Part shown: piece by piece, positions 21,718 through 55,009 of the stretch | Layout: each line of letters starts with the position of its first letter | How positions within the stretch are numbered: the first letter of the stretch is position 1 | Notes under the pieces: generated by a model | What the model saw: only the letters and a program-made list of their open reading frames with translations | Told to the model about the DNA's origin: nothing | Databases searched by the model: none | Program-made: the position numbers and the translations under genes | Origin: an uncultured Bacilli bacterium | GTDB taxonomy: Bacteria; Bacillota_I; Bacilli_A; RF39; UBA660 | DNA length: 64,000 nucleotides | Assembly: GCA_947598285.1 (NCBI GenBank) | Contig: CANQFE010000001.1 | Location: 13,705 to 77,704, forward strand | Direction: 5' to 3'

Positions 21718-21999
21718 ATGAATTCTAATTTAATTATTACTTGTCCAAGATGTCATAGACAATATTATTTTCAGGAAATTTTTCATCCAAAAACTATCTT
21801 TAACCCTGTATATAATATTATTAGGGATGATAAAGGTCAAATAGATGAAATAATTGAAGACAAATCGGATTTAAGCGAATTATATTTTTGTGATACGTGT
21901 GAAGCACCAATATTTGTTAAAGCTGATATTTCGTTTGAAATTTCAATAGAAAATAAATTTGATTTTACGAAGGATACTGTAATCATTAAAAATGATTAA
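21718..21999 (+). CDS. small zinc-ribbon protein (CPRCHR…CDTCEAP)
   Basis: Two CxxC pairs in 93 aa. Confidence 0.4.
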   Translation: MNSNLIITCPRCHRQYYFQEIFHPKTIFNPVYNIIRDDKGQIDEIIEDKSDLSELYFCDTCEAPIFVKADISFEISIENKFDFTKDTVIIKND

Positions 22000-23689
22000 A
22001 ATTAAAGAGGATGTAACAACAAAGATTCCAGGATTAACATCTTTATATATTACATTAAATCCCGTAGACACGAATGTCTTAAACATATTACATCAATGTC
22101 CTCCATATAATTATAATAAAAATATAAAAAGCTGGGAAATTCCTGTTACCCGGCTTTCTAAATTTATAAATATGGCAACTAAATTTGATGATATTGAGTT
22201 AGATTTAATGAAAAATGTTCCAATAAAAAAATTGGATTATGAACCATCTAAATTTAGAACAAAACCATATCAACATCAAATTGAAGTAATTAAATATGGA
22301 CTTCAACACGATAATTTCTTATTACTCGATGCTCCTGGTTTAGGTAAGACAATCTCTTTAATTTACTTAGCACAGGAATTAAAGAAGAAAGAAAATATAG
22401 AACATTGTTTAATTATTTGTGGCATTAATTCATTAAAAGTTAACTGGGAAAAAGAAATTGAAAAACATTCTGATTTAAATTGTATAATTCCTGGTAAACG
22501 TATTACAAAAACCGGTAAAACTCTATATGGTTCAATTGATGATAGATTAAAGGCTTTAAGTCAGCCTATTAAAGAATTCTTTGTTATTTTAAATATAGAA
22601 TCTCTACGTGAAGATAAAATTTTAAAAATTCTTAAGAATGGTCCTAATAGATTTGATATGATTGCTATAGATGAATTACATGTAGCAAAATCAAGTCAGT
22701 CTTCTCAAGGGAAAAATTTGTTAAAATTAACGAACGCAAAACATAAAATAGGCATGACTGGTACATTATTATTAAATAATCCAGTTGATGTTTACGTTCC
22801 TTTAAAGTGGATTGGTGCTGAGCATTCTACATTAACTAATTTTAAATCTCAATATATTGAATATGGTGGTTTCTTTAATAATGAAGTTGTTGGGTATAAA
22901 AATATTGATTCATTAAAAGATCAAATAGCTTCAGTCTCATTACGAAGAACAAAAGATTTATTAGATTTACCAGAAAAAAATATTATTGATGAATATCTTG
23001 ATATGAATAATGATCAAGATAAGTTTTATCATGATATTGTAAATGGAGTATTGAATGAAGTTGATAAAGTAAATATAAATACTTCTATAGTATTATCTAT
23101 GGTAACACGATTGCGGCAAGCAACATCTTGTCCAAGTGTTTTAACAACATCTCCAATTTCATCTATAAAAGTTCAAAGATGTATAGATCATGTAACAGAA
23201 ATTGTAGCATCAGGAAATAAAGTTGTAATCTTTTCACAATTTAAGAAAACAATAGAAGATTTATTATCAGAACTTAAAGAATACAATCCATTAGTTTGTA
23301 CTGGAGATATACATGATAGTATTATATCAGAAAATGTCGATAAATTTCAAAATGATGATGAACATATGGTCATGATATGTACAGCACAGAAAATGGGCAC
23401 CGGATTTACATTAAATAGAGCAGCATATGCAATCTTCGTTGATACGTCTTTTGTACATGGTATTCAAGAACAAAACGAAGATCGTATACACAGAATTGGT
23501 AGTAAACAACCTGTATTTATTTACAGATTGTGGTGTAATAATACGTTCGATTTAAGGGTAAAACAGTTAATTGATAATAAAAGAGTGTTATCAGACTACA
23601 TAATTGACAACACAGCTGGTAGCGATGCTAAAGAAATTTTACGTTCGTTAATATTAAATGAAGGCATAGAAAACTCCATTCTAACATGA
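21992..23689 (+). CDS. SNF2/Rad54-family ATP-dependent helicase
   Basis: Motif I LLLDAPGLGKT, motif II DELH, motif III MTGTLLLNNP, and C-terminal motifs V/VI (GTGFTL; QNEDRIHRIGSKQ). Confidence 0.8.
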   Translation: MIKIKEDVTTKIPGLTSLYITLNPVDTNVLNILHQCPPYNYNKNIKSWEIPVTRLSKFINMATKFDDIELDLMKNVPIKKLDYEPSKFRTKPYQHQIEVIKYGLQHDNFLLLDAPGLGKTISLIYLAQELKKKENIEHCLIICGINSLKVNWEKEIEKHSDLNCIIPGKRITKTGKTLYGSIDDRLKALSQPIKEFFVILNIESLREDKILKILKNGPNRFDMIAIDELHVAKSSQSSQGKNLLKLTNAKHKIGMTGTLLLNNPVDVYVPLKWIGAEHSTLTNFKSQYIEYGGFFNNEVVGYKNIDSLKDQIASVSLRRTKDLLDLPEKNIIDEYLDMNNDQDKFYHDIVNGVLNEVDKVNINTSIVLSMVTRLRQATSCPSVLTTSPISSIKVQRCIDHVTEIVASGNKVVIFSQFKKTIEDLLSELKEYNPLVCTGDIHDSIISENVDKFQNDDEHMVMICTAQKMGTGFTLNRAAYAIFVDTSFVHGIQEQNEDRIHRIGSKQPVFIYRLWCNNTFDLRVKQLIDNKRVLSDYIIDNTAGSDAKEILRSLILNEGIENSILT

Positions 23690-23706
23690 ATGGAGTTTTA
23701 TTTTTA
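23670..23706. terminator. bidirectional intrinsic terminator between convergent SNF2 (+) and queE (-)
   Basis: 11-bp perfect stem AAAACTCCATT / AATGGAGTTTT with an 8-nt loop, flanked by A-runs upstream and T-runs downstream. Confidence 0.65.
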
Positions 23707-24429
23707 TACACCTTGTTTATTTCCCCACACTAAAGTATGAATTTGTGGAAGAATGTATACATATTTCATATCACTTTGCATTACTTTCTCAATAAGTGTT
23801 TTATAATTTCGAAGAATTCTTTCCGCAATATCTCCTTTCTCGTCTACATTATCATTTCCAACACTTAAATATAATTTAATGTTTAGATTTGATTGTGTTA
23901 AAAAATGATATGTACGTGCGAACTCGAAATCTTCATTATTAAACACAGGAATTTTAATAGCAATATTAGTTTTATTTTTTAATAATGTATTATAGTTCTT
24001 AGATAACCAATTACAAATGTTTTCGAAGACGTTTGGTTGATGACTGGAAGGCGCTTTAGGACTAATAACGATTGTATTACACATTAACAGCCAAGCAGGA
24101 AATTTGCTACCTTGTGTTTCAACATCGAATGAAATATCATCATCTTTTAATTTAGAAATAACATTACTAAAGTTATACAAACAAGGGTTACCACCAGTTA
24201 ATACTACATTACGAGTATTGGTATTGTTACATAGTGTTCGTAATTCGTCAATCAGTTCTTCATCAGAATATTTCCTTGAATTCTCACTTTCTGCCCATGC
24301 AAATTTACTATCACACCACGAACATTTAAAATCACATCCAACTACTCTTACAAAAATAGTTTTAATGCCTGCTTTTGGTCCCTCCCCTTGAATGGTGGGA
24401 CCAAAAATTTCGGTAACGTTGATGCTCAA
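23704..24429 (-). CDS. queE: 7-carboxy-7-deazaguanine synthase QueE (radical SAM)
   Basis: N-terminus EIFGPTIQGEGPKAGIKTIFVRVVGCDFKCSWCDSKF matches the QueE signature and the Cx3Cx2C cluster of the QueE radical-SAM variant. Confidence 0.8.
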   Translation of the reverse strand: MSINVTEIFGPTIQGEGPKAGIKTIFVRVVGCDFKCSWCDSKFAWAESENSRKYSDEELIDELRTLCNNTNTRNVVLTGGNPCLYNFSNVISKLKDDDISFDVETQGSKFPAWLLMCNTIVISPKAPSSHQPNVFENICNWLSKNYNTLLKNKTNIAIKIPVFNNEDFEFARTYHFLTQSNLNIKLYLSVGNDNVDEKGDIAERILRNYKTLIEKVMQSDMKYVYILPQIHTLVWGNKQGV

Positions 24430-24873
24430 TTAATCCACCTCACATTCTGCGAAACTATTTGTAGTTTCCCACAATTTAACTTTCTTAATCTGAACTCCTT
24501 TAGCTTTTAATTCACTGTCCTTGTTGATTTCATCTCTAATATGGGTAAGAAACCACTTTGACATATTTTCAGCAGAAGTGTCAAAAGGAAAACCTTGAAT
24601 TGCCTTAGAATGTTTTTGTAGAACTTCAACAAGTTCTTGTTCAACAACAGATGGATTAGCTTCGTTATATAGATATTTATGATCGGGAAGCACACGTTTA
24701 ATAATTTGATCAAGAACCTTGAAATCCAAAACCATTCCCCATTGAGTTCGCTCTCTACAGCCAACAGTTACTTCAATTTTATATGTATGACCGTGTAGAT
24801 TTGCACAAGCTCCAGGATATTCAGGCAAGAGATGTGCGGCTTCAAATTCCGCGTGCCGTGTTACAGTTACCAT
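24430..24873 (-). CDS. queD: 6-carboxy-5,6,7,8-tetrahydropterin synthase QueD
   Basis: 147 aa, …HAEFEAAHLLPEYPGACANLHGHTYKIEV…. Conserved Cys and His-x-His zinc/catalytic motifs of QueD/PTPS. Translationally coupled to queE. Confidence 0.8.
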   Translation of the reverse strand: MVTVTRHAEFEAAHLLPEYPGACANLHGHTYKIEVTVGCRERTQWGMVLDFKVLDQIIKRVLPDHKYLYNEANPSVVEQELVEVLQKHSKAIQGFPFDTSAENMSKWFLTHIRDEINKDSELKAKGVQIKKVKLWETTNSFAECEVD

Positions 24874-25197
24874 GTAAGTACTCCTTCATACTAATTTGAT
24901 GTGATAATTATAGTACATAATTTTCAATTTTTCAACTAATACGAATAAATAACTTATATAATATTATATTTTAATATAATTTAATTATTAGTTAATAAGT
25001 TATGTAATAATATTATTATATAAGATTATATAATATAATACAACTAAGTAATTTAGTTGTATACATTCTAGTTGTATTATCTTATTTAAGACTATATAAT
25101 ATATACGTGAAAATTTTTACGTTGTTCGACCAATTCACTTAATACAAGGTGTATACATAAAGAAGACTTGTTTTAGATATGAAGTAATGTTATTGAG
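24874..25197. promoter_or_regulatory. AT-rich divergent intergenic region (~85% A+T) with direct/inverted repeats; divergent promoters and candidate replication origin
   Basis: Lies between the minus-strand queDE operon and the plus-strand replisome operon. Contains the palindrome ACAACTAAGTAATTTAGTTGT, repeated TATATAATATA units and two TTGTAT-N17-TA(T)AAT promoter-like elements. Confidence 0.5.
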
Positions 25198-26004
25198 GTG
25201 ATTCACATTTTAACCGAACTTAAAAGAATATATAAAGAAAAATCTAGGCAAATAGACGGTATAAAACAGAAAGACCAGATAGCTCTTGCAAATTTATATC
25301 ATGATGATCCTAAAAATAAGGAAGTTTATTTATCCGAATTAGTTGTACGATATTGGAATATACCGTCAAAAGCAGTTTATCAAAATTTAAATATTTTTTC
25401 AGAAGAGGATGCATACGAATGGTATATTGAAGCAGTATTAGGGGTCTTGGAGGAACGACCTTGGACAAATACTTCTAGTAGTTTATATAAAGATCCGAAA
25501 GCATTTGAAAAAGCAATCAACGTTCGATTTTTCTGCATAAAAACAAATTGGTTTCAAGCATCTAATCGCCACAAAAGAAAATTATTACATGATAGTATTA
25601 GTCTTGATAAGTGTATAGAAGAATACGATGATTTTACTTTTCATAATAGTTTAGTTGATGATACGGATATTCTTACATCAGAAATACATAAAGATTTAAT
25701 TATACGTTTCTTTCAGGAAAAGAATTATCTTCTAACAATTATTATTGATTTAATTGCAAATCAAATAAATATTGATAAAGTTTCGGATATCGAGTCATTA
25801 AGTGTTATGGTCAGAAAGTATCTTAAGAAAGCGTTAAGTAGTTATGTAGCCACTTTTACAAAAGAATATGGACTTCCAAAAGATGAAGTTGTCGAAGCGT
25901 ATTATAAGATATATAATATTAGTGATAAGAGACTTAAGACATCTGTTAATTATTATATTTCTAAGTTAAAATTATTACTTCTACAAGAAGGACTAACATG
26001 TTAA
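25198..26004 (+). CDS. hypothetical protein, first gene of replication operon (possible initiator/regulator)
   Basis: 268 aa. GTG start. No recognisable catalytic motif. Confidence 0.4.
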   Translation: MIHILTELKRIYKEKSRQIDGIKQKDQIALANLYHDDPKNKEVYLSELVVRYWNIPSKAVYQNLNIFSEEDAYEWYIEAVLGVLEERPWTNTSSSLYKDPKAFEKAINVRFFCIKTNWFQASNRHKRKLLHDSISLDKCIEEYDDFTFHNSLVDDTDILTSEIHKDLIIRFFQEKNYLLTIIIDLIANQINIDKVSDIESLSVMVRKYLKKALSSYVATFTKEYGLPKDEVVEAYYKIYNISDKRLKTSVNYYISKLKLLLLQEGLTC

Positions 26005-26735
26005 TCGATCTTTTAGGCATGGATAATTATATTAGTTTTAATATTAAACTAGCTGAAATTCTTGGATTACATGCAGCTATTTACTTATCAGAGCTTATGA
26101 ATATAAATGAAAAAGCTGTTAGAAAATCAAAAGTTGACAACAATTTTTTTATTATAGATCGTTCATATATTACTAGAAGAACAACACTTGATAGAACAGA
26201 ACAATTAAAGATAGATAAAGAATTATGTGATCTTGGAATACTTAAGATTAACGAAGCAAATCATAATACAATTCAATTAAATTTATCTGTTCTCATTAGT
26301 CTTCTAAGTGGAGAAAACGAAGAAGTAATTAAAAATTTAAAAGAAACAGTTAAAAAAAGTAAGACAAGAAAGGAAGGAACGAAAGAACAACAAGCATGTG
26401 AATCAATGAAGGCTTTAATTGAAACTGATAATCCTGAACTATATGAAGCGTATTGTGACTGGATTGACTCTGTATATGCAAAATTGCACTGGATGTCTAA
26501 AAAAGCTGTGCTATTTGGACAGCAATTAGTCGATGAGACTTCTAACCGAGATTTAGATGTTGCACTAAAAATAATAGAATTAGCTACTGTCAACGGATAT
26601 AAAGACATGACATGGGCGGTAAAATTGTATAAAGACAACTACGAGCCATCATATCGAGTTGTGAACAACTCAAAAATCAGTTATACTATATCAGATAAAA
26701 CTACAAAGCCAGAGTTAAGTGACGAGGTGTTCTAA
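25998..26735 (+). CDS. DnaD/DnaB_2-domain replisome organizer (replication initiation and membrane attachment family)
   Basis: C-terminal region YEAYCDWIDSVYAKLHWMS…DVALKIIELATVNGYKDMTWAVKLY resembles the Firmicute DnaD-like (PF07261) domain. Precedes the helicase-loader/helicase pair. Confidence 0.55.
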   Translation: MLIDLLGMDNYISFNIKLAEILGLHAAIYLSELMNINEKAVRKSKVDNNFFIIDRSYITRRTTLDRTEQLKIDKELCDLGILKINEANHNTIQLNLSVLISLLSGENEEVIKNLKETVKKSKTRKEGTKEQQACESMKALIETDNPELYEAYCDWIDSVYAKLHWMSKKAVLFGQQLVDETSNRDLDVALKIIELATVNGYKDMTWAVKLYKDNYEPSYRVVNNSKISYTISDKTTKPELSDEVF

Positions 26736-27441
26736 AATTTTACTAAGTACGGATTGTTTTCTTAAAGATCAATGTGCCAAGTACAAAAGAAATAATTGTG
26801 TAGACAATTCTTTTTGTTTGAAACTATTTAAAATAGAGGCATTATTTTCGAATTCACTTCTTCCAAAACATAAGTGGAATCGATTTGCTCTTTATATTGA
26901 TAAAGATAATACTGATAAAAAAGAATTTAAAGAACTTAGGTATATAGAAAAAACTATTTCGGATTTTATTGAATCAGGTAAAAATCTATATCTCTGTTCT
27001 TCAACTTGTGGTAATGGTAAAACAAGTTGGGCAATTAGACTTATACAAAGTTATTTCAATAATATTTGGCCTTCCGTGGATGTTGATAAAGAGCCTTGTA
27101 AAGCTTTATTTATCAACTTGCCTAATTTTTTTATCCAATTAAAAAATAATATATCAAAACAAAATGATTATATTGATTTTATTAAACGATATGTCTTAGA
27201 ATGTGATCTTATTGTTTGGGATGATGTTGGAACTAAAGCTGGAACAGAGTTTGAAATGGAAAATTTCTTATCAATTTTAGATTATAGATTATGTTGCGGT
27301 AAGTCAAATATTTACACATCAAATATATTACCACAAAATTTAAGTCAGTATCTCGATGTAAGGTTATGTTCTAGAATATTAAATCAGAATTGTGACATTA
27401 TTTGTTTAAATGGGCAAGATAAAAGAGGTGTTCGAGCATGA
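26719..27441 (+). CDS. DnaC/DnaI-like helicase loader (IstB-type AAA+ ATPase)
   Basis: Walker A CGNGKTSWA and Walker B LIVWDDVG, about 240 aa, immediately upstream of dnaB. Confidence 0.65.
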   Translation: MTRCSKILLSTDCFLKDQCAKYKRNNCVDNSFCLKLFKIEALFSNSLLPKHKWNRFALYIDKDNTDKKEFKELRYIEKTISDFIESGKNLYLCSSTCGNGKTSWAIRLIQSYFNNIWPSVDVDKEPCKALFINLPNFFIQLKNNISKQNDYIDFIKRYVLECDLIVWDDVGTKAGTEFEMENFLSILDYRLCCGKSNIYTSNILPQNLSQYLDVRLCSRILNQNCDIICLNGQDKRGVRA

Positions 27442-28709
27442 TACAGTTACAAATGTTAAATCGTATTCTACAATCAGGAAACACCTCTTTATTAACGTTA
27501 CATAATTTCACTGAAGAGTATTTTAGTGATTATAAAAAAGAATATAACTGGATTTCTGAACATATTAAAAAATATGGTAATTGTCCGGATACAGTTTCTT
27601 TTTTAGATCAGTTTCCTTCTTTTGATATTATCGAAGTCAATGAAACAAATGATTATTTATTAACTTCTTTAATAGAAGATTTTAATAAGAGAAAATTAGC
27701 AAAAGTCTTTAATAAAGTAAGAGAGCTATTAAATAATAATAAAACACAAGAAGCACTTAATTATTATATTAATGCGGTAACTGACGTTACTTCTTCTACA
27801 GATATTCAATCAATTGATATTATACAAGACACCTCTCGTTATGATACATATATTGATAAGTGTAATGACTATAATAAATTTTACATCAAAACAGGTTTTG
27901 ATGAATTAGATACATTGATTGGTGGTTGGGATAAACAAGAAGAACTCGCAACACTTGTAGCACGTCCAGGCGTTGGTAAAAGTTTTTGTTTACAGAAAAT
28001 TGCCATTGCAGCAGCACAACAAGGTTTAACTGTTGGCATTTATTCTGGAGAAATGTCTGAAGCTAAAGTTGGTTATAGAATTGATACGTTAATTTCACAT
28101 ATTCCAAATTCTGGTATTATGCGTGGTGATCCAAATATTAAGACTGAATATAAGCGATATTTGGAAGGGTTAAAAGATACTATTAAAGGATCTATTAAAA
28201 TTCTTACTCCAAGTATGATTAATGGACCTGCAGGTGTAAATGCGCTACGTGCTTTTGTTGAAAAGGATCATTTGGACATGCTGTGTGTGGATCAACATTC
28301 CTTATTGGAAGATGATCGTAAAGCTAAAACTCCTTTTGAAAGAGCAGCTAATATATCAAGAGATTTAAAGAATTTGCAAGTATTAAAGAAGATTCCTATT
28401 ATTGCTATTTCACAACAAAATAGAACCGAAGCACAAGAACAAAATACTACTCAAGTTGCACAAAGTGATAGAATTTCACAAGATAGTACAATTCTATTAT
28501 TTTTACAACAAAAAGAAAATTTGCTTACTTTAAATTTAGTAAAATCAAGGGATTCAGTAACTGGAAAGAAATTAAATTATGCAATAGACCTTAATAGAGG
28601 TATTTTTAATTTCGTTCCAGATAGTACGAATACAGATAAAGAAGCGTTAAAAGGTCTTAAAGAAGAATACGATTCTGATATAACAACATGTGGGGAGGAT
28701 ATATATTAG
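27438..28709 (+). CDS. dnaB: replicative DNA helicase DnaB family
   Basis: Walker A ARPGVGKSF, RecA-like C-terminal domain, 423 aa. Confidence 0.8.
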   Translation: MIQLQMLNRILQSGNTSLLTLHNFTEEYFSDYKKEYNWISEHIKKYGNCPDTVSFLDQFPSFDIIEVNETNDYLLTSLIEDFNKRKLAKVFNKVRELLNNNKTQEALNYYINAVTDVTSSTDIQSIDIIQDTSRYDTYIDKCNDYNKFYIKTGFDELDTLIGGWDKQEELATLVARPGVGKSFCLQKIAIAAAQQGLTVGIYSGEMSEAKVGYRIDTLISHIPNSGIMRGDPNIKTEYKRYLEGLKDTIKGSIKILTPSMINGPAGVNALRAFVEKDHLDMLCVDQHSLLEDDRKAKTPFERAANISRDLKNLQVLKKIPIIAISQQNRTEAQEQNTTQVAQSDRISQDSTILLFLQQKENLLTLNLVKSRDSVTGKKLNYAIDLNRGIFNFVPDSTNTDKEALKGLKEEYDSDITTCGEDIY

Positions 28710-29666
28710 TTGCAATTAACTGTTGATAATAAAGTAATATTAACTCCATTACCAAAAATCTTAGAAACTCTTCAATCTCAATTATCTACTGGTAAGTTAA
28801 AAGATATTGATTCATCTAATTCTGAAAATATTAGAGTAACTTGTCCAAATAATGATCATAAAGGTGGACAAGAACGTCATCCAAGTTGTAATATTTTCAA
28901 TCTTGATAATAATGATAAAGTTACGAAAGGAACTGCACACTGTTTTGCTTGTGGGTATAAAGCAAATTTTGTTCAGTTTATTTGTGACTGTTTTAACAAC
29001 GATGATATTCAGTTTGCTAAAGACTGGTTACTTGAAAATTCAGACGTCGCATTTCAATCAGAGGTACAATATTTACCAGAAATAGAAATCGAAACTAAGA
29101 AACCAGAAAAAGAATATTTAGATGAATCTGTTTTAACTCAATATAAACATTATCATCCATATATGTGGAAAAGAAAATTATCAAAAGAGATTGTTGATTT
29201 ATTTGAAGTTGGATATGACGCTAATTCTAAATGTCTTACATTTCCAGTTAGGGATGAATATGGTAGACTTTTATTTATAACAAAACGTAGTGTAGAGAAT
29301 AAAAGTTTCTTTATTCCAAAATATGTTGAAAAACCGGTTTATTTATTATATTATGTCTTGCAACATAAATTAACTAGGGTTGTGGTATGTGAATCACAAA
29401 TTAACACGCTTTATTGTTGGACTCTTGGAATTCCAGCTATTGGCCTCTTTGGAACCGGAGATTCTTTTCAATATAATATTCTTAAAACATCCGGAATTCG
29501 TATTTTCGATTTAATGTTTGATGGAGATTCTGCTGGACGAAAAGGAGCATATAGGTTTGAACAATATATGAAAGATTATTGTTTTATAAACAAATGGATA
29601 CTACCAGAAGGCAAAGATGTAAACGACTTATCTTATGAGGAGTTAACTAAATTACCAGTTATTTAG
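28710..29666 (+). CDS. dnaG: DnaG-type DNA primase (zinc-binding + TOPRIM)
   Basis: CHC2-type zinc finger (CPNNDHKGG…HPSC…HCFACG) and TOPRIM acidic motifs (VCESQ; FDGDSAGR). TTG start. Confidence 0.7.
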   Translation: MQLTVDNKVILTPLPKILETLQSQLSTGKLKDIDSSNSENIRVTCPNNDHKGGQERHPSCNIFNLDNNDKVTKGTAHCFACGYKANFVQFICDCFNNDDIQFAKDWLLENSDVAFQSEVQYLPEIEIETKKPEKEYLDESVLTQYKHYHPYMWKRKLSKEIVDLFEVGYDANSKCLTFPVRDEYGRLLFITKRSVENKSFFIPKYVEKPVYLLYYVLQHKLTRVVVCESQINTLYCWTLGIPAIGLFGTGDSFQYNILKTSGIRIFDLMFDGDSAGRKGAYRFEQYMKDYCFINKWILPEGKDVNDLSYEELTKLPVI

Positions 29667-29725
29667 TTGTATTTTTTAAAATCTTATATTATACTATACT
29701 TACCAATTATGAAAGGAATTTAAAA

Positions 29726-30592
29726 ATGGCTCAAATTAGTTTTGATCAAATTGATGCATATGAACGTAATCGTGGGGGGTCTACTGGAAGAACATTTAGT
29801 TTCTTTGCTTTGAAGAATCATGGTGACAAAGCACTTGTAAGAATTCTGTATGATGATGTTTCTGAATTTATGTTCTACTCATATCACCAGGTAGATGCAC
29901 AGAATCGTACTTTTAGAATCAATTGTCTTCGTACAGATGCTGATAATATCAGCTCATGTCCACTTTGTGCGTCAGGAAGTAAAACAAAAACAAGTTTCTT
30001 TATTCCAATGGTTCAGTACTCTATGGAAAATGGAGAGCTACATCAGCAACTTGTTGTGTGGGAACGATCATCTCAATATCGTAATACTCTAGCATCATTT
30101 CTTAATGACTATGGCCCATTAAGTGATGTTCTTGTTACTATTACACGAAATGGTGTGGCAGGAAGTAAGGATACAAGATATAGCATTCTTCCAGCAAATC
30201 CGAAGATGTATGCAAATGACGCGTATCCAATTGATTCTACAATTCTTGAAAATCGTCGTAATTTAAATATTATTGGAACGTTGATAATGGATAAAACCGC
30301 GAATGATATTAATACATTTATGCAAACCGGTAATTTCACAATGTCTACGACACAGATGACAACACAGACTGATAATCAAACTCTTCCAACATTTAATGTA
30401 TCACAAGCTACAGTTATTCCTACGACTTCGATACCTATGGAACAGCCACCAGCTATTCCACCCGCACCATCTGAAGTTCATCAATATCAAACACCGAATA
30501 ACAACGGATTTACAACCGGAACTCCAGTGGTACCAACTTCAGTTACTACATCAAATGTATCAACGATTAATAGACCTCGTAGATATTATTAA
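29726..30592 (+). CDS. hypothetical protein, possible ssDNA-binding protein (CxxC-containing) with a Q/T/P-rich C-terminal tail
   Basis: Sits between primase and DNA polymerase. Contains SSCPLCASG. Assignment rests on position and low-complexity tail only. Confidence 0.3.
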   Translation: MAQISFDQIDAYERNRGGSTGRTFSFFALKNHGDKALVRILYDDVSEFMFYSYHQVDAQNRTFRINCLRTDADNISSCPLCASGSKTKTSFFIPMVQYSMENGELHQQLVVWERSSQYRNTLASFLNDYGPLSDVLVTITRNGVAGSKDTRYSILPANPKMYANDAYPIDSTILENRRNLNIIGTLIMDKTANDINTFMQTGNFTMSTTQMTTQTDNQTLPTFNVSQATVIPTTSIPMEQPPAIPPAPSEVHQYQTPNNNGFTTGTPVVPTSVTTSNVSTINRPRRYY

Positions 30593-30608
30593 GATTTAGG
30601 AGTTTTGT

Positions 30609-33092
30609 ATGCAAACTTCTTTATGGGGAGAAGAATTTGAAGTAAAAAAGCCTGAACCGAAGACGATTATACAAAAAATTAAAAATCCAAAAAATGTAAA
30701 AACGGTTACTAAAAAAACAAGTAGCCAATATAATGATATAAGTATTAATGAGCGTATTAAATCCATTAAAGAAAACGTAGAACAAATTTTGGGTCGATAC
30801 GCTCAAAATACTATTTGTATCAGAAATTATGAAGAATTTGTAGATTATATTAATACTGCAATTAGCGTAAATGAATTAGCAGTTGATACTGAAACGAATA
30901 ATAGTCTAGATCCAATTTCTTGTAAAATTATGGGATTATGTTTGTATAGTCCAAATCAAAAAAGTGCTTATATACCTGTAAACCACGTTAATAAAGATAC
31001 AAATATTTTATTAGATGGTCAAATTACCGAGGAGCAGATAAAAGAGCAATTACAAAAAGTTGTGGATAGTAAATGTAAAGTTATTATGCACAATGGTAAA
31101 TTTGACTATAGCGTAATTAAGCAAACTTGTGGTATTGAACTTCCTTGTTATTGGGATACTCAGATTGCAGCTCGTATCTTAAATGAGAATGAATTTAGTT
31201 CGGCATTAAAAGAGCAGTATCGTTTAAAAGTAGATTCAACAGCGGATAAGTATGATATTGAACATTTGTTTGAAGGATTGCCTTATGAAATTTTCGATCC
31301 AGAATTATTTGCATTATATGCTGCAACGGATTCATATAAAACATATTACTTGTATAAGTGGCAAGAAGAACAATTTAATCTTTCGGATAATAAGAGATTA
31401 AAAGATGTATTTTTAAATATTGAAATGCCAGTCGTACAGATTACAGCAGAAATGCAGTTAGCAGGTATTTGTATTGATAATGAATATGCGGAACGTTTAA
31501 GTAAAAAATATCATGCAAAATTGGAAGCTGCTGAAAAGGTTATTGATGATACGTTAAAAGAGTACGAAACTGCAATTATGGAATGGAGAAAAACTCCAGA
31601 AGCAAATTATAAACCAAAAAGTAAGAAACCAAATAAAAACGGTGAATACACATTACAAAAATCGAAGAGCGAACAGTTAGCGAATCCACCACAAGTGAGT
31701 AGTCCACAACAACTAGCAATATTGCTTTATGATGTATTAAAAATTCCTGTTGTTGACCAGAATGCACCAAGAGGAACTGGAGAAGATATACTAAAGCAAA
31801 TTAAAAATCCTTTGTGTTCTGCAATTTTAACAAAACGTGGTCTGGATAAGTTAATTGGTACATATATTGATAAGATACCAAAATGTGTTCATGAGAAAGA
31901 TCATCGTCTACATGCAAGTTTTAATCAATTAGGAACGGACACCGGACGCTTTAGTAGTAATGAGCCCAATCTTCAAAATATACCAAGTCATGATAGATCG
32001 ATTCGATTAATGTTTATTCCAGCGGAAGGAAATGCGTTAGTTGGTTCTGATTTTAGTCAACAAGAACCGCGAACACTCGCTAAATTTAGTAACTGTTATG
32101 AAATGTTAGATGCATATAAAGCTGGTAAAGACTTATATGCAGTTCTTGCAAGCGGTATTTATAAAAATAAGTATGAAGATAATTTGGAACATTATCCAGA
32201 TGGATCGTTAAATGTAGAAGGGGATAAAAGACGAAGTAACACAAAGAGAGTTCTTTTAGGATTGCTTTATGGCAGAGGAACAGGCTCTATTGCAGAACAA
32301 TTAGGTCTAGAATATAATGAGACTCAAAAAATAATTGATGATTTCTTCGCATCATTTCCAAAAATTAAACAATGGACAACTGAGTCAGAAGATAATGCAA
32401 TGAAGACAGGTTACGTTGAAGATTACTTTGGAAGAAGACGTAGATTACCGGATATTATGCTTCCAGAATATACGTTACAAGAAATGGATAATAAAGTTTC
32501 AACCAGCATTAATCCATTATTAAGATGTAAAGGATTATATAGTCAAAATGATAACCCGAAATTAAAGTTTTATTCAAATGAACTGAAAGCTGTACGAAAT
32601 AAAAAGGACTTTGATGAGATTAAACAACGTGCTTTAAAAGATGGAATTACAATTAGAAATAATAAATCTTTTATTGCAAAAGCTAAGAGACAATGTGTTA
32701 ATGCAAGAATTCAAGGAAGTGCCGCTTCACTTACAAAATTAGCAATGATTGACGTGTTTAATAATCAACGTCTAAAAGAATTAGGTTTTAGAATGTTATT
32801 ACAAGTACATGATGAATTGATTGGTGAATGCCCAATTGAGAATGCGGAAGAGGTGGGCGAACTTCTTGCGAATACAATGAAAGTAAGTGCTGAAAAAGCA
32901 TTACATATGCCATTTAAGTGTGATGCGGTTATTACAAGTTGTTGGTATGAAGATAAATATTGTAAAGAAGTTTTAAAATTTTACCAGAAGAAACTCAAAG
33001 ACACAAATTCTGAAGAGGAAGCAATGAAATTAACATCCCAAGAATTTGTTGAATTAACAGAAGAACAAATAAATCGTTTTCTACAAATGTAA
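30609..33092 (+). CDS. polA: DNA polymerase I (family A) with 3'-5' exonuclease domain
   Basis: Exo I AVDTETN; motif A LVGSDFSQQEPR; motif B RRSNTKRVLLGLLYGRG; motif C LQVHDELIGE. No intron or intein interruption evident. Confidence 0.85.
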   Translation: MQTSLWGEEFEVKKPEPKTIIQKIKNPKNVKTVTKKTSSQYNDISINERIKSIKENVEQILGRYAQNTICIRNYEEFVDYINTAISVNELAVDTETNNSLDPISCKIMGLCLYSPNQKSAYIPVNHVNKDTNILLDGQITEEQIKEQLQKVVDSKCKVIMHNGKFDYSVIKQTCGIELPCYWDTQIAARILNENEFSSALKEQYRLKVDSTADKYDIEHLFEGLPYEIFDPELFALYAATDSYKTYYLYKWQEEQFNLSDNKRLKDVFLNIEMPVVQITAEMQLAGICIDNEYAERLSKKYHAKLEAAEKVIDDTLKEYETAIMEWRKTPEANYKPKSKKPNKNGEYTLQKSKSEQLANPPQVSSPQQLAILLYDVLKIPVVDQNAPRGTGEDILKQIKNPLCSAILTKRGLDKLIGTYIDKIPKCVHEKDHRLHASFNQLGTDTGRFSSNEPNLQNIPSHDRSIRLMFIPAEGNALVGSDFSQQEPRTLAKFSNCYEMLDAYKAGKDLYAVLASGIYKNKYEDNLEHYPDGSLNVEGDKRRSNTKRVLLGLLYGRGTGSIAEQLGLEYNETQKIIDDFFASFPKIKQWTTESEDNAMKTGYVEDYFGRRRRLPDIMLPEYTLQEMDNKVSTSINPLLRCKGLYSQNDNPKLKFYSNELKAVRNKKDFDEIKQRALKDGITIRNNKSFIAKAKRQCVNARIQGSAASLTKLAMIDVFNNQRLKELGFRMLLQVHDELIGECPIENAEEVGELLANTMKVSAEKALHMPFKCDAVITSCWYEDKYCKEVLKFYQKKLKDTNSEEEAMKLTSQEFVELTEEQINRFLQM

Positions 33093-33108
33093 ATAGGAGA
33101 ATGTAATA

Positions 33109-33837
33109 ATGAAGAAAATCTTGTTATATAGTGGCGGAATGGATAGTTGGCTAATTGATAAGATATGGAAACCAGATGAAAAAGTCTATGTTAATATGCA
33201 CACTCGTTATTCTGAACAAGAAATGAAGAAATTAAAATTGCGTAATGAGAATATTACAATTCTTGATTTCCCTCTTGGGCAATTTGAAAGAGAGGATAAA
33301 ATTATTCCATTAAGAAATCTATATCTAACAATGCTTATTTGTAATTATACCGGCAATGAAGATGTAGATATTTGTCTTGGAGCAACTGCAGGAGATAGAG
33401 TTTTAGATAAATCATTTAATTTTGTAGAAAAGGTAAATGATCTACTAAATTACTTATATAGCCCACAGTGGTGGATTCCTGCTGGAAAGAAAATTAGAGT
33501 AAATATTGATTTTAAAGATAAAACAAAATCAGACCTTCTTGACATGTACTTAAAGGCTGGTGGAACATTAGAAGAAGCATTTAATAAATCATTTAGTTGC
33601 TATGAACCAGATGAAGAAGGACATGAATGTTGGTCATGCAAACCTTGTTTTAGAAAGTTTGTAACATTTGCTGATAAGGGATTTACGTTTTCAGAGGATG
33701 TTCTTAAGAAAGTAATTCCATATATTTCAAAAGAAATTATTCCTCAGATTAAGAGTGGAACATATGGACGTGGAATATCGGAAGAATCACTTATTTTATC
33801 TGTCTATGAGAAATATAAAGATTTTGACACTGTGTAA
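33109..33837 (+). CDS. queC: 7-cyano-7-deazaguanine (preQ0) synthase QueC
   Basis: PP-loop LLYSGGMDS and C-terminal zinc motif CYEPDEEGHECWSCKPC. 242 aa, with no fused glutaminase domain. Confidence 0.8.
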   Translation: MKKILLYSGGMDSWLIDKIWKPDEKVYVNMHTRYSEQEMKKLKLRNENITILDFPLGQFEREDKIIPLRNLYLTMLICNYTGNEDVDICLGATAGDRVLDKSFNFVEKVNDLLNYLYSPQWWIPAGKKIRVNIDFKDKTKSDLLDMYLKAGGTLEEAFNKSFSCYEPDEEGHECWSCKPCFRKFVTFADKGFTFSEDVLKKVIPYISKEIIPQIKSGTYGRGISEESLILSVYEKYKDFDTV

Positions 33838-33925
33838 TTAGTTGTATTTTATAGAAAAATATATTATAATATATATAGACAGGAAAACGTTATGGTTAAT
33901 TTATGAAAATGTATATGGTTAGTAT

Positions 33926-34861
33926 ATGAAATTTAATTTTTATTTTACTGGTGTAGATACCAAATCTGAAATGTTCAGATACTTAGTCGAAAATTATGGA
34001 TATTTACTGTATTCGCAATTAAATGATCGACGAAATATTATGAACACAATTGAGTACATGAAAGAGCATCCAGATAATAGAATTAAACTTTTTATTGACT
34101 CTGGTGCTTATAGTGCATGGTCTTTAGGTAAGAAGATTGATGTAGAAGAATACATTAATTTCTTAAATAAATATTCAGAATATTTTGAAATGTTTGCGTG
34201 TGTAGATAAACTACCAGGTACTCCTAAAACTGTTTCTAAACTAAGTCATGAAGAAGTAGAAGAATCGGCAAAATTGTCGTGGGAAAATTATCTGTATATG
34301 CGTTCTAAAGTAAAGGAACCCGATAAACTTCTATATACATTTCATTCAAACGAGTCTTTTGATCATCTTATTACCGCTCTACAATATGAAGATGAGCATG
34401 GAAAATTAAAAAGAATGGCAACTGGTGGTACAGCAAGTATTGAAAGATCTGATCGTAAGAATTTCTTTGATAAAGTATATAAGACTTTGAAAGAAGTTCC
34501 AAATGAAATTAAAGATATACACGCTTTTGGAGTTTCAGACTTTAAGTTAATGGAAAATTATACTGCTACCTCATCTGATTCTACTACATGGGTTCGTAGT
34601 GCTTCTTTTGGTCAGATTATGATTAACAATAAAGTTTATACGGTTTCCGATAGAAAAGAAGATGTCGGAGAAAATGAAGATCAAAAAAGTCTTTCTCATT
34701 ATGAAGCTTTAAAAACAGCGGTTGAAAAAAGAGGATTTACAGTTCAAGAATTAAAAGAAGATGTAAATAAACGTAAGCTTTTTAATATTATAGATACAAT
34801 TCAGACAGTGAAATCTTTACAATATAAACCGCAAAAAACAACAAAAGTGGATTTATTTTAA
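33926..34861 (+). CDS. dpdA: DpdA, tRNA-guanine transglycosylase-like DNA transglycosylase (inserts 7-deazaguanine base into DNA)
   Basis: TGT-family catalytic Asp motif KLFIDSGAYSAW and a second acidic motif HAFGVSDF. ~310 aa, as for phage DpdA. Flanked by queC and folE. Confidence 0.7.
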   Translation: MKFNFYFTGVDTKSEMFRYLVENYGYLLYSQLNDRRNIMNTIEYMKEHPDNRIKLFIDSGAYSAWSLGKKIDVEEYINFLNKYSEYFEMFACVDKLPGTPKTVSKLSHEEVEESAKLSWENYLYMRSKVKEPDKLLYTFHSNESFDHLITALQYEDEHGKLKRMATGGTASIERSDRKNFFDKVYKTLKEVPNEIKDIHAFGVSDFKLMENYTATSSDSTTWVRSASFGQIMINNKVYTVSDRKEDVGENEDQKSLSHYEALKTAVEKRGFTVQELKEDVNKRKLFNIIDTIQTVKSLQYKPQKTTKVDLF

Positions 34862-34879
34862 TATTAAGGATAATCAGAT

Positions 34880-35686
34880 ATGATGGTTGATTTTGTAAAA
34901 ACACAATATTTTGCTAAGTTTAAAGATCATACTCCGGAGCAGTTTGAAGTTGATTTTAACGCTTACTTAAATATTCCTCATTTCAAGGCAAACGAAAATA
35001 TTCATGAAGTATTATCGGCTAATGATAAAGAAGAAAAATATTGTCGTAGAGACATTGAAAACGAATTTATCGACGAAGATAATAATATTAAACCGGAAGT
35101 TCATTGGATTATGCGAAGTGCAACACAATATTATCTTATGAAAGCATTTAATGCAATGAAGATTGATTTAACTGATCCGAATGTAGATATTAATGCTCTA
35201 GGTAAAGGAACCCCTGGAAGAATTGCAAAAATGTGGTGTGGTAACGATCCAGATGATACAACGGAATTGGGCTCTGGAAGATGGAATAAAGAACCTGTTC
35301 TTTCTATTTTTCCAAATGATGGACAGCAAGGTATTATTTGTAAAGAAGTAGATCTAATATCCTGTTGTAGTCATCATTTTCTTCCTTTTAGTACTTTGGA
35401 TAGAGGTAGAGCAATTATTGCATATAAACCTGGAACGCATTTAATTGGGATTAGTAAATTACAACGTTTTGTTAATTGGGCTGCCAAGAGGTTTTGGTTA
35501 CAAGAAGATTTAACAAATTATCTTGGTAAGACTATTAAGAGAATTTCAGGTACAGAAGATGTCTTTATTAAAATCGAAAACGCAGTTCATGGATGTGAAC
35601 ATTATAGAGGTGCTAATTCAAAAGATGGTTCTTTAACCACAGAATATAGAAGTGGCATATTTAATGATAGTAATGTAACGTTCTAA
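34880..35686 (+). CDS. folE: GTP cyclohydrolase I (FolE) with N-terminal extension
   Basis: Collinear with FolE: RIAKMW (cf. RVAKMY); CCSHHFLPF (cf. CEHHFV); IAYKPGTHLIGISKLQRFVNWAAKR (cf. VAYIP…VIGLSKINRIV); AVHGCEHYRG (cf. AVHYCVKARG). Confidence 0.75.
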   Translation: MMVDFVKTQYFAKFKDHTPEQFEVDFNAYLNIPHFKANENIHEVLSANDKEEKYCRRDIENEFIDEDNNIKPEVHWIMRSATQYYLMKAFNAMKIDLTDPNVDINALGKGTPGRIAKMWCGNDPDDTTELGSGRWNKEPVLSIFPNDGQQGIICKEVDLISCCSHHFLPFSTLDRGRAIIAYKPGTHLIGISKLQRFVNWAAKRFWLQEDLTNYLGKTIKRISGTEDVFIKIENAVHGCEHYRGANSKDGSLTTEYRSGIFNDSNVTF

Positions 35687-35701: not shown

Positions 35702-36823
35702 ATGATTCTACGAACAGATATTTTACAGAAATCGTGTGAAAAGATTCTTGCAGCAGTAGATTCTAATGTTCTTAATACAATTACAGAAACATTGGAAATT
35801 AAAATCAAAGATGGAATTTTTTCAATGGCAATTACCAACAGAGAATATTACGTAAATATTAAGTTTAATGCTAATACTAACGAAGAGCTTCATGCAACGG
35901 TAGATGCAATTCTGTTCCTCAAACTTATTGGTAAAGTAACGTCGGAAACAATTGAACTTACAAGTAATAATAATAATCTTCTTGTTAAGTGTAATGGTAA
36001 TTATAAACTTCCACTTATTTACGAAGACGAAAAACTTCTTGAAATTCCGACAATTGAAATGGATACAGTACAAGAAGAATTTTCTATCAGTGGAGAAATT
36101 TTAAATTCTATCATTGATTTTAACAGTAAAGAACTTAGTAAAGGGGCAATTACAAGACCTGTACAACGTTTGTATTATGTTGATGGTAATGGTTGTATTA
36201 CGTTTACCAGTGGTGCATGTATTAATAAGTTTAACGTTAATATGAATTCTAAGTTGCTAATGAATGATAAACTTATTAAGTTGTTTAGATTATTCAAGAA
36301 GGACAATGTTATTCAGGTAAAAGTAGGACACAAACAGCTTGGAGAAGATATGACTTCAACAGTTATTGATATGACTGCAGACGATATTCAAATTTCAGCA
36401 ATTCTTGCAAGTGATGAAAAACTGTTTCAAGGGTATCCCGTTACAGCAATTCGAGGAAGAGTAAATGATGAATATCCATATTCAATTTCAGTAAATAAAA
36501 TATTAACTATTCAAGCAATTGATCGGTTAATGCTATTTACTAACACAAGCACTACGTTGGATGAATATCTAATAAAATTAACGTTTAATAACAATGCATT
36601 GATTATTAGTGATTACAAGGGTAATAATGTTGAGCAAGTTACATATGCAAATGAAAGCAACATTACCGATAGTTATGAAGCATTTATTGATAGTAGGGAC
36701 TTTTCAAAAACATTACAGAGTTGTAGTAATCAGATTGTAAAGATTCATTTTGGAAATGATAAAGCATTTTTGATTAACGAAGGTAATATAAGTTGGGTTA
36801 TTCCTCAGTGTTATGAATCTTAA
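35702..36823 (+). CDS. sliding clamp (DNA polymerase III beta-like)
   Basis: 373 aa, the same size as DnaN. Three-domain repetitive beta-rich organisation. Located with polA and the clamp-loader genes. Confidence 0.5.
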   Translation: MILRTDILQKSCEKILAAVDSNVLNTITETLEIKIKDGIFSMAITNREYYVNIKFNANTNEELHATVDAILFLKLIGKVTSETIELTSNNNNLLVKCNGNYKLPLIYEDEKLLEIPTIEMDTVQEEFSISGEILNSIIDFNSKELSKGAITRPVQRLYYVDGNGCITFTSGACINKFNVNMNSKLLMNDKLIKLFRLFKKDNVIQVKVGHKQLGEDMTSTVIDMTADDIQISAILASDEKLFQGYPVTAIRGRVNDEYPYSISVNKILTIQAIDRLMLFTNTSTTLDEYLIKLTFNNNALIISDYKGNNVEQVTYANESNITDSYEAFIDSRDFSKTLQSCSNQIVKIHFGNDKAFLINEGNISWVIPQCYES

Positions 36824-40354: not shown

Positions 40355-40983
40355 ATGATACCTTTTCCAAATAAAAAGTACAATATCATTTATGCAGTCC
40401 ACCGTGGTCATATAATGATATAGGATGTAAGGGTTCTGCAACTGAACATTATCCAACAATGACCATTGAGGAACTAAAGCAGCTTCCTATTAATTCTGTA
40501 AATGGAGAAGGTGGTATTGCTGCGGACGATTGTGTTCTTTTTATGTGGGCTACATATCCAAATATACAAGAGGCACTTGATTTAATTAAAGCTTGGGGGT
40601 TTACATATAAAAGTGTTGCTTTTCAATGGATAAAAGAAAATAAAAATGGAAATGGATATTTTCTTGGATTGGGACATTGGACACGTGCAAATTCAGAACC
40701 GTGTTTAATTGCAGTTAAAGGGAAACCACAACGGATAAATGCAGGGATTCGTCAACTCGTATTTTCACCAATTAGAAAACATAGTGAAAAACCAGATGAA
40801 GTTCGGAACAGAATTGTTGAGCTTATGGGTGATTTACCACGGATTGAATTATTCGCACGTTCTGGTGCGATTGGATGGGATTGCTGGGGAAATGAAGCCC
40901 CTGAAAATAATATAGATTTTGAGAATTTAAAAGAAGAATTAAAGATTACTAAAAAGCATATGAGCAAGGCTTCACTGTTCTAA
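40355..40983 (+). pseudogene. MT-A70-family N6-adenine DNA methyltransferase, disrupted by a 1-nt frameshift in the (D/S)PPW motif region
   Basis: Frame A (40355-40423) encodes MIPFPNKKYNIIYAVHRGHIMI*. The frame ending at 40983 encodes …SPPWSYNDIGCKGSATEHYPTMTIEEL…LFMWATYP…GHWTRANSEPCLIAVKG…HSEKP…. Inserting one base after 40396 (GCAG^TCC) restores IIYADPPWSY. The longest ATG-initiated ORF is 40459-40983. Confidence 0.6.
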
Positions 40984-54262: not shown

Positions 54263-55009
54263 ATGAAATGTAAAGTTATTAAATTTAATCCTAATGAAAT
54301 TAACCATAAATATATATGTGAGATTGAAACAGATTATGATAAATTATCAGAAATTTCACAAGAAGTTAATTTAAAAAAGGATGGAGAAGAAACGCGGTCC
54401 ATTATTTTAAAATTAAAAAACACTATTCGTGCTAATGAAAATATGGTCGGATTATCAGCTCCTCAAATTGGATTTAATAAACGAATCATTTGTATTAACT
54501 TTAATGGAGATATTCGCACACTAATTAATCCACTAATTACATCTCGTGAAGGATGGACACTACATAGAGAAAGTTGTCATTCTATTCCAAATAAAGAATT
54601 CCTTATTCATAGGCACACAAACATTTCAGTAACTTATACAACCCCTCTTGGACGTATAGAAATAGTCTCACTAATAGGACTCGCTGCATTTATTGCACAA
54701 CACCAAATTGAACACTTAGATGGAATTCTTCTAAGTGATAATGGACTAGAAGTTGACGAGATGTTTAATAATGCTTCAGAAGAAGAACAAGATGAAGTTA
54801 TAAAGATGTATTTAGAATCTTTGGATCTTCGTGCAAAAGAATACAATCTTGCAATCGAAGAAGATGAAGATGCAAAGAAGTTACGAGATGAAGCTAAATT
54901 CATTAACGCAATTGAGAATGGTGACGTTAAGATTGAATATGTTCCATGGACTCAAGAAGAAATTGATAAATACGAAAGTAGTCAGGAAAAAGAAGACTTA
55001 GACAAATAA
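54263..55009 (+). CDS. def: peptide deformylase-like metalloprotein with acidic C-terminal extension
   Basis: Motif 1 GLSAPQIG (GxGxAAxQ), motif 2 RESCHS (EGCLS-like, metal Cys), motif 3 QHQIEHLDG (HExxH). Confidence 0.6.
   Translation: MKCKVIKFNPNEINHKYICEIETDYDKLSEISQEVNLKKDGEETRSIILKLKNTIRANENMVGLSAPQIGFNKRIICINFNGDIRTLINPLITSREGWTLHRESCHSIPNKEFLIHRHTNISVTYTTPLGRIEIVSLIGLAAFIAQHQIEHLDGILLSDNGLEVDEMFNNASEEEQDEVIKMYLESLDLRAKEYNLAIEEDEDAKKLRDEAKFINAIENGDVKIEYVPWTQEEIDKYESSQEKEDLDK

Follow-up and report, generated by a model that had tools for sequence, protein, structure and literature searches.

The 64-kb stretch of DNA analysed here (positions 13,705 to 77,704 of contig CANQFE010000001.1; hereafter the window) belongs to an uncultivated, low-GC tailed phage and encodes baseplate and tail proteins and, on one strand, a full replisome. 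Five of its genes concern a 7-deazaguanine base in DNA: queE, queD, a queC-like gene, dpdA and folE. Modifying DNA with 7-deazaguanine bases is a well-established way for phages to counter restriction. Our observations are gene identities, folds, catalytic motifs, synteny and co-occurrence, and judged from them the phage carries a complete DpdA1-type 7-deazaguanine DNA-modification system, one more predicted member of an established system.

The window has a GC content of 30% and makes up ~47% of the 136,760-bp contig that records the exact DpdA and QueC-like proteins. Among its 73 non-overlapping open reading frames (ORFs) of at least 60 amino acids there are no other pathway candidates than these five, and 71 lie on the forward strand, queE and queD being the only two on the reverse strand. 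ORF calls place all five genes at the coordinates and on the strands that a first-pass annotation of this DNA had given them (Table 1). Its claim of a full route from GTP to a 7-deazaguanine base, together with a DpdA-type transglycosylase, is borne out by the family scores and motifs described below. The phage host is probably a member of the gut Firmicutes. The replication module is distantly related to those of Streptococcus phage Dp-1, Bacillus phage Flasso and Clostridium phage phiCTP1, and no megablast match to a 7 kb region of the locus was found among the INPHARED phages.

Table 1. Genes and sites of the 7-deazaguanine locus, in window positions
Feature	Position	Strand	Basis
Terminator hairpin	23670-23699		12-bp stem, A-run and T-run flanks; between the convergent SNF2 helicase gene and queE
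queE, 7-carboxy-7-deazaguanine (CDG) synthase, radical SAM	23704-24429	-	TIGR03365, 235.3 bits (cutoff 206.1)
queD, 6-carboxytetrahydropterin (CPH4) synthase	24430-24873	-	PF01242, E 4.6e-30, 104.5 bits
AT-rich, repeat-rich spacer, 324 bp	24874-25197		between divergent queD and the first replication-module gene
Sigma-70-like promoter match	24907-24935	-	TTGAAA-17-TATAAT, 11/12; best of the region; placed to drive queD-queE
polA, family A DNA polymerase with 3'-5' exonuclease	30609-33092	+	PF00476, E 2.3e-89; PF01612
queC-like, compact non-canonical PP-loop ATPase	33109-33837	+	PF06508, 51 bits (gathering threshold 22)
dpdA, predicted DpdA1-type 7-deazaguanine DNA transglycosylase	33926-34861	+	phrog_887, E 9e-36; similarity to Dp-1 and Flasso
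folE, GTP cyclohydrolase I	34880-35686	+	PF01227, E 5.6e-29, 101.3 bits (threshold 27), residues 109-264
dnaN-like sliding clamp	35702-36823	+	PF00712, 23.5 bits, slightly below the gathering threshold of 24.4; homolog of Dp-1 DnaN

The predicted DNA transglycosylase and its pathway enzymes

The DpdA protein (311 amino acids) has no Pfam or NCBIfam match, including to the tRNA-guanine transglycosylase (TGT) family (Pfam: PF01702). Its relatives are phage proteins. A tblastn search of 50,697 phage records matched 161, with no Campylobacter phage among them. The best match was in Flasso (32% identity over the full length, E 2e-43), Dp-1 and MS1 matched at 30-31% over the full length, and the Seuratvirus/9g-like coliphages CAjan and Seurat at 24.5% (E 2e-12). 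Compared directly by BLASTP, the CAjan DpdA matches with an E-value of 2e-19, and the motifs FxDSGA, FHxGE, HAFG and SxDSxxW are common to both proteins. To our knowledge, DpdA2, DpdA3 and DpdA4 cannot be reached by direct sequence similarity from DpdA of the 9g/CAjan/Dp-1 type. DpdA2 also lacks the conserved histidine of DpdA. Across 37 homologs, the residues D58, S59, D94, H140, H199 and D218 are invariant. H199 aligns with the histidine of the CAjan motif 'LHAFG', and we infer that it is the residue described as 'His196' (PMC6884629).

A single-sequence phmmer search against the PDB returned nothing meaningful for DpdA and a 30-sequence profile likewise missed TGT, so a fold comparison was needed. 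The AlphaFold2 model (predicted local distance difference test score, pLDDT, 91.7; predicted template modelling score 0.88) was compared with the PDB by Foldseek and matched bacterial, archaeal and human TGT with a probability of 1.00, an E-value of ~1e-9 and template modelling scores of 0.6-0.66, at 13-15% identity. The hhalign alignment of the DpdA profile with E. coli TGT is weak (E 0.059) and agrees in register with the fold match; in it the catalytic Asp pair, D58 and D218, falls on D89 and on the nucleophile D264, respectively. The alignment stops short of the Zn-binding CxCxxC...H segment, and the protein has a single cysteine (C92) and consequently no Zn site. The first-pass annotation had named an intact tRNA-TGT zinc site together with a grouping with tRNA-modifying TGT as what would overturn its DpdA assignment. 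The protein shows neither and groups with phage DpdA, and it is predicted by sequence and model to be a DpdA1-type DNA transglycosylase.

The enzymes that would supply the base are, by family scores, solid members of QueE, QueD and FolE with intact catalytic motifs. QueE (phrog_2076, E 1.3e-41) carries the radical-SAM triad CxxxCxxC at C32/C36/C39 and is 37-39% identical to the QueE of Dp-1 and Flasso. QueD has the QueD-type motif C23-ANL-H27-G-H29 and scores 81.7 bits against TIGR03367, slightly below the cutoff of 89.25. The TTG start codon of queE abuts the stop codon of queD and is served by the ribosome-binding site GAGGTGG, and the two genes appear to be translationally coupled. FolE (phrog_2197, E 2e-33) has its Zn ligands in CSHH at 162-166 (C162/C163-S-H165-H166) and at C239. 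It scores 93 against an NCBIfam equivalog cutoff of 162 and, because such cutoffs are not reached, is best described as a divergent phage-type FolE. Its N-terminal extension of ~105 amino acids (34880-35200, residues 1-108) has no family match. The Dp-1 FolE has a comparable extension and aligns to the window FolE only from its residue 113.

A compact QueC-like family in the slot of canonical QueC

The protein in the position of QueC passes the Pfam threshold (Table 1), whereas against TIGR00364 it reaches 27.7 bits, with a cutoff of 150.3. A four-sequence profile of canonical QueC gives it 15 bits, compared with 118-189 bits for the QueC proteins of Campylobacter phage CP220 and of two metagenomic loci discussed below (L094 and L095). 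Furthermore, the QueC proteins of Dp-1 and Flasso fail to detect it by tblastn at E <= 1, and no Campylobacter phage matches it at E <= 0.01. Relatives occur in 4 of the 50,697 phage records, none of which is a characterised 7-deazaguanine phage. An exhaustive search placed the protein in a discrete family, which forms 916 clusters at 50% identity and whose members almost all have 220-260 amino acids.

Single-sequence phmmer of the QueC-like protein against the PDB returned nothing meaningful. A profile of 50 family members retrieved the QueC structures 2pg3/3bl5 first (E ~1e-10), then Cap9 and QatC, and hhalign of the family with the CAjan QueC gave 97.4%. The AlphaFold2 model (pLDDT 92.7) likewise has 2pg3 as its top Foldseek match, followed by Cap9. 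By profile and predicted fold the protein is a member of the QueC superfamily, not a canonical QueC.

We mapped the motifs of 50 diverse family members on the E. coli QueC numbering, taking the signature from published mutagenesis, in which R99, Y131 and Y189 are essential, Y131A is inactive and Y131F keeps partial activity (PMC13329287). The PP-loop S8-G-G-M-D12-S13, the segment I-P67-L-R69-N70 (R99) and K140 (K165) are conserved in 98-100% of the 50 members. The Zn motif C164-Y165-(x8)-C174-xx-C177-xx-C180 is kept, with a spacing of x9 in place of x8 that varies within the family, and position 189 is Tyr or Phe in 48 of the 50. The substrate-facing part of the signature is reduced. Of YxQxHxxE only the tyrosine is left (Y35, corresponding to Y34, kept in 42/50), E42 being replaced by Arg or Lys in 30/50, and the pocket reads Y-x3-E for YxQxHxxE and xDK for YPDC. 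D133 is kept in all members, and no aromatic residue is present in G95-K101 in any register.

Besides sequence, genomic context bears on the function of the family. Our context sample comprised 84 loci with a compact QueC-like gene, from 24 lineages at ≥80% identity, with 10 kb on either side. QueD was found in 69 of these loci, QueE in 68 and FolE in 67, and a DpdA homolog was detectable in 38. None of the 84 carried a canonical QueC, and none carried QueF, which was searched for by tblastn and by the motif ESKSxKLY (the motif search recovered both positive controls). Linkage to queD and queE is regarded as a hallmark of bona fide QueC (PMC13329287). It is looser in the window, with 8.2 kb between queD-queE and the queC-like gene.

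The closest metagenomic relatives of the window system are L094 and L095, on contigs of 105-150 kb. Their DpdA proteins are 40-44% identical to that of the window, and the synteny of the replication module is the same. Both have a canonical QueC between PolA and DpdA (L094 7982-8683 and L095 6164-6934, 189 and 142 bits), and no QueF was found in their clusters. Because the two types of QueC occupy the same slot in the same synteny, they look like interchangeable partners of orthologous DpdAs. The compact QueC-like protein is, judged from this position, a non-orthologous replacement of QueC in an otherwise orthologous cassette. The nearest DpdA relative is only 46% identical, compared with relatives of the window QueC-like protein elsewhere that are 91% identical, and the module is therefore mosaic.

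Several of the loci carry further genes. In L006 (7430-8326) and L007 (2769-3668) a family 8 glycosyltransferase and two small paralogous ORFs (110-131 amino acids) occupy the interval between QueC-like and QueD, and Vut_1, a YhhQ-like precursor transporter, follows FolE. These genes may serve further tailoring or salvage in those phages. The window has no counterpart of the glycosyltransferase, of the small paralogous ORFs or of Vut_1/QueT. The clusters of the closest DpdA relatives (L095 7472-7855; L094 8689-9126) hold a phosphoribosyltransferase-like ORF of 127 amino acids, with a faint Pfam match, between queD and queE, and a dCMP-deaminase-like ORF between queC and dpdA. The presence of a phosphoribosyltransferase among que genes might point to a route at the nucleotide level.

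Gene order, transcription units and neighbouring genes

The genes polA, queC-like, dpdA, folE and dnaN are separated by gaps of 16, 88, 18 and 15 nucleotides, with no terminator-like site between them. These short gaps and the lack of terminator-like sites make co-transcription plausible, and queC-like, dpdA and folE are probably transcribed together with polA and dnaN. The first-pass annotation had read this arrangement as modification coupled to replication. Of that, the probable co-transcription is supported, which speaks for co-expression and does not demonstrate a mechanistic coupling. Insertion by DpdA is regarded as post-replicative (PMC10516641).

The same annotation had called the layout unusual, which the comparison contradicts. 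The order polA-que-dpdA-clamp is conserved in Dp-1, Flasso, L094/L095 and L006-L028, and CAjan and CP220 are similar. Flasso has PolA - QueC-QueD-QueE-FolE-QueF - DpdA - DnaN, and joining the genome ends of Dp-1 gives this order there too. L095 has PolA - QueC-QueD-x-QueE-FolE-Vut1-DpdA - clamp, and L006-L028 resemble it. In CAjan the que cluster has the genes of the clamp and of a family B polymerase as neighbours, and in CP220 the QueC homolog, named QueC*, lies directly upstream of the polymerase, with FolE beside the clamp. Linkage to the replisome is the rule in 7-deazaguanine systems and nothing special to this phage. The polA product itself is 36-41% identical to the polymerases of phiCTP1, Dp-1 and Flasso.

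What is derived or peculiar in the window genome is the inverted queD-queE pair alone, which lies 8.2 kb upstream of the queC-like gene and looks like a relocated, self-contained cassette. In none of the 69 loci with QueD is this gene on the opposite strand to QueC-like. The hairpin between queE and the helicase gene closes off the pair and sets it apart as a transcription unit of its own. This hairpin is probably bidirectional and is one of only two terminator-like sites between 21.5 and 37 kb. At the other end, what speaks for the candidate queD-queE promoter is its position and score, since promoter-like sites overall are not enriched (104 vs 95 ± 11 in shuffles).

The spacer between queD and the replication module has a GC content of 18.8%, compared with 30% for the window, which agrees with the AT-rich region reported at first pass; no other large intergenic region of the window is as AT-rich. 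It holds 60 inverted-repeat 8-mers, compared with 25.9 ± 9.4 in shuffles (~3.6 standard deviations), and 39 direct-repeat 8-mers, compared with 18.3 ± 7.0 (~3 standard deviations). No DnaA box was found in the spacer, nor a GC-skew switch at it beyond the effect of the reversed genes. The spacer is a possible replication origin, and a divergent regulatory region would explain it equally well.

Several other genes of the window are of note. The gene convergent with queE (21992-23689, +) encodes an SNF2-family helicase that matches the PADLOC models ZorD (147 bits) and DpdE (107 bits) through the generic SNF2 core only. It is probably a replication or recombination helicase, and its likeness to DpdE beside que genes probably a coincidence. 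At 40459-40983 (+) there is an MT-A70 family or type II orphan N6-adenine DNA methyltransferase (Pfam: PF05063, E 3.3e-23; PADLOC MTase_II, 186 bits), and N6-methyladenine is probably a further DNA modification of the phage, independent of the first. A peptide deformylase at 54263-55009 (+; Pfam: PF01327, E 7e-27) is a phage auxiliary gene unrelated to the 7-deazaguanine system. The two ORFs at 55593-57362 (+) and 61641-62621 (+) encode, between them, a DUF932 protein (E 1.2e-50) and a Listeria-Bacteroides repeat-domain protein, which may function in host interaction and is in keeping with a gut setting of Firmicutes or Bacteroidota. DUF7487 and NUMOD3 (homing-endonuclease-like) ORFs are found at the start of the window (343-1356, 2058-2969 and 3399-3824, all +). 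In L006 an ORF that matches the window DUF7487 proteins is inserted between PolA and DpdA, and in L007 another such ORF separates QueE from FolE. Moreover, PolA is split in L008 (with a GIY-YIG domain), L094 and L095. Mobile endonuclease-like genes seem to shuttle around these que clusters.

The base predicted in the phage DNA

Four phages with related systems are the points of comparison. In Dp-1, and also in MS1, the cluster is QueF-QueC-QueD-QueE-FolE-QueT-DpdA, and 7-aminomethyl-7-deazaguanine in its deoxynucleoside form (dPreQ1) accounts for ~1.7% of G in Dp-1 DNA (PMC6884629). The Dp-1 proteins are 31% (DpdA, full length), 39% (QueE), 36% (QueD) and 30% (FolE, both N-terminally extended) identical to those of the window. 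The two genomes share the synteny of PolA, DnaN, RecU, gp13, RecA, DnaX, delta', HolA and HD, with the que cluster between polA and dnaN in both. Dp-1 has QueF, a canonical QueC, the QueT transporter and all genes in one direction, whereas in the window no QueF or QueT was found, the QueC-like protein is compact and queD-queE is inverted. Flasso, which has the best annotated DpdA match and shares the synteny of primase, helicase, RecA and clamp loader, also differs in having a canonical QueC and QueF. We know of no experimental analysis of Flasso DNA.

The Escherichia phage CAjan (Seuratvirus) has FolE, QueD, QueE, QueC and DpdA, and its DNA was shown experimentally to carry 2'-deoxy-7-cyano-7-deazaguanine (dPreQ0; the base is preQ0) (PMC6884629). 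It equals the window in its minimal gene content, with no QueF or amidotransferase, and has a homologous DpdA. In contrast to the window, this 60 kb proteobacterial siphovirus has a preQ0 transporter, a polymerase of family B and a canonical QueC in which both YGQRH and YPDC are intact. CP220 combines QueC*, a proposed 7-amido-7-deazaguanine (ADG) synthase, with DpdA3 and has 100% of the deoxynucleoside, dADG (PMC10516641). Its QueC* (CPT_0114) lies at 100,966-101,625 (L093 966-1625); no QueC homolog was found in CP220 1-50 kb, and the window DpdA profile had no match in this segment, the sole one searched with it. The window DpdA is assigned to the DpdA1 type, whereas CP220 has DpdA3.

By family membership, FolE would convert GTP to 7,8-dihydroneopterin triphosphate (H2NTP), QueD would make CPH4 and QueE would make CDG. 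The QueC-like ATPase would then activate the carboxylate of CDG with ATP and yield preQ0, most likely via ADG. After replication, the DpdA1-type transglycosylase would swap guanine in duplex phage DNA for this base, with dPreQ0 then marking a fraction of the G positions against restriction. Co-transcription with polA and dnaN would let the modification machinery appear together with the replisome, and queD-queE, inverted and equipped with a promoter and a terminator of its own, would be expressed separately as a two-gene cassette. Predicted here from sequence are the reaction of the QueC-like protein, which base is inserted, at which sequences and at what level, and its role against restriction.

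The prediction also depends on which tailoring genes are present. No QueF, Gat, ArcS, DpdL/M/N-like or formyl/methyl-transferase-like domain was found in the replication-module, tail-module and distal ORFs that were scanned, which are all but about a dozen mostly short or tail-module ORFs of the window, in agreement with the first-pass statement that no QueF or amidotransferase is visible in the 64 kb. An Rfam scan of the window found no preQ1 riboswitch, and the tRNA scan was empty. Because the window covers under half of the contig, the absence of tailoring genes holds for ~47% of the genome.

dPreQ0, the product foreseen at first pass, is the likeliest modified base in the phage DNA, with a probability of roughly 0.55. 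preQ0 is favoured as the product of the QueC-like protein mainly because this protein replaces QueC in an otherwise orthologous cassette. Every DpdA1 enzyme that has been tested to date inserts preQ0 or preQ1 (PMC10516641). The earlier argument from an unfused QueC does not carry over, as the protein fails the canonical signature and the TIGR00364 cutoff, and with YxQxHxxE and YPDC reduced and that cutoff far off the prediction is likeliest without being safe. Several observations weigh against it. Within the family Q37 is variable, H39 is Glu in 49/50, Y131 of YPDC is gapped in 48/50 and C134 is Lys in 43/50, so that the remodelling includes the tyrosine essential for preQ0 formation in E. 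coli (PMC13329287). In addition, the superfamily includes amide-only chemistry, since Cap9 and QatC go no further than a ligation that forms an amide (PMC13329287), and the QueC-like protein matches Cap9 second best by both fold and profile. QueF, which needs preQ0, was found within 10 kb of QueC-like in none of the 24 lineages, as would also be expected if the product were not preQ0. These points would fit an enzyme that performs only the first ATP-dependent half-reaction, giving ADG or another amide that DpdA inserts, with dADG-type DNA as in CP220. In QueC* of CP220 the canonical signature is intact except for Q37 (Ser) and Y131 (Phe, without the hydroxyl), two positions also lost in the QueC-like family that may be relevant to the outcome of amide versus nitrile in QueC*. 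However, the two proteins are related at the superfamily level only (pairwise E 0.018). QueC* is near-canonical, with 118 bits on the canonical profile, on which the QueC-like protein has only its 15, and CPT_0114 scores 49 bits on the compact-family profile. Cap9 has the same PP-loop/Zn-ribbon scaffold and is similarly 'minimal', but it retains YxQ...E and YxDC (PMC13329287), so the loss of these motifs is no marker of amide-only chemistry. The contexts differ too, being defensive for Cap9 and QatC (CD-NTase, QatABD) and biosynthetic for QueC-like. Given also the canonical slot beside orthologous DpdAs and the bases inserted by the tested DpdA1 enzymes, we regard a half-reaction enzyme with dADG-type DNA as a doubtful alternative, and we are just as tentative about a distinct enzyme class whose product would be ADG or CDG ligated to another amine.

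A different possibility is that preQ0 is made and then tailored further, to dPreQ1, deoxyarchaeosine (dG+) or a methyl or formyl derivative, by QueF, ArcS, Gat, DpdM or DpdN encoded outside the window; an enzyme such as QueF, ArcS, Gat or DpdL-N placed there could likewise count against dPreQ0 as the final base. The two closest annotated relatives, Dp-1 and Flasso, have QueF in the cluster, Dp-1 DNA contains dPreQ1 (PMC6884629), and the rest of the 136.8 kb contig leaves room for such a gene. Against this, the tailoring gene lies inside or beside the que cluster in all known cases, none was found here or within 10 kb in the 84 loci, and all replication-module ORFs were scanned without a match, which makes later tailoring improbable. 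Phage que genes have long been annotated as host queuosine genes, and PHROG and GenBank label the transglycosylase 'queuine tRNA-ribosyltransferase', as if the genes were auxiliary metabolic genes for host queuosine or preQ0 supply and the enzyme acted on tRNA. This is very improbable for a protein with one cysteine that groups with the DpdA of phages with experimentally modified DNA (PMC6884629), and whose gene is embedded between polA and the clamp gene; no QueA, QueG or QueH was found either. We rejected a tRNA-TGT identity on the missing Pfam/NCBIfam TGT match and Zn subdomain. Likewise rejected was the reading that the contig is bacterial or a prophage and that the QueC-like/TGT-like pair serves anti-phage defence there, as part of Qat, of type IV CBASS (Cap9/Cap10) or of a bacterial Dpd island. 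A weak PADLOC match to 'QueC' (26.5 bits), the DpdE/ZorD-like SNF2 core and the presence of Cap9 and QatC among the matches might suggest it. However, the partner genes (CD-NTase, QatA/B/D, DpdB-K) are missing from the window, PADLOC gave no match for the TGT-like protein, QatC NF041925 gives 18.5 bits with a cutoff of 280, and the SNF2 match is confined to the generic core in what is a phage genome by its baseplate, tail and replisome genes. Gene context and sub-threshold family scores effectively refute a defence role, and its probability is negligible.

With dPreQ0 kept as the likeliest product, what is worth retaining from this locus is a widespread compact QueC-like family that replaces canonical QueC across many phage clusters from metagenomes and lacks residues recently shown to be essential in the E. 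coli enzyme. Should its product not be preQ0, many gut and environmental phages would have amide-type 7-deazaguanine DNA, by a route independent of the QueC* of Campylobacter phages, and predictions of dPreQ0 from gene content would be wrong for a large set of phage genomes, including that of the window phage. If the family still makes preQ0, the minimal catalytic signature of QueC would be redefined.

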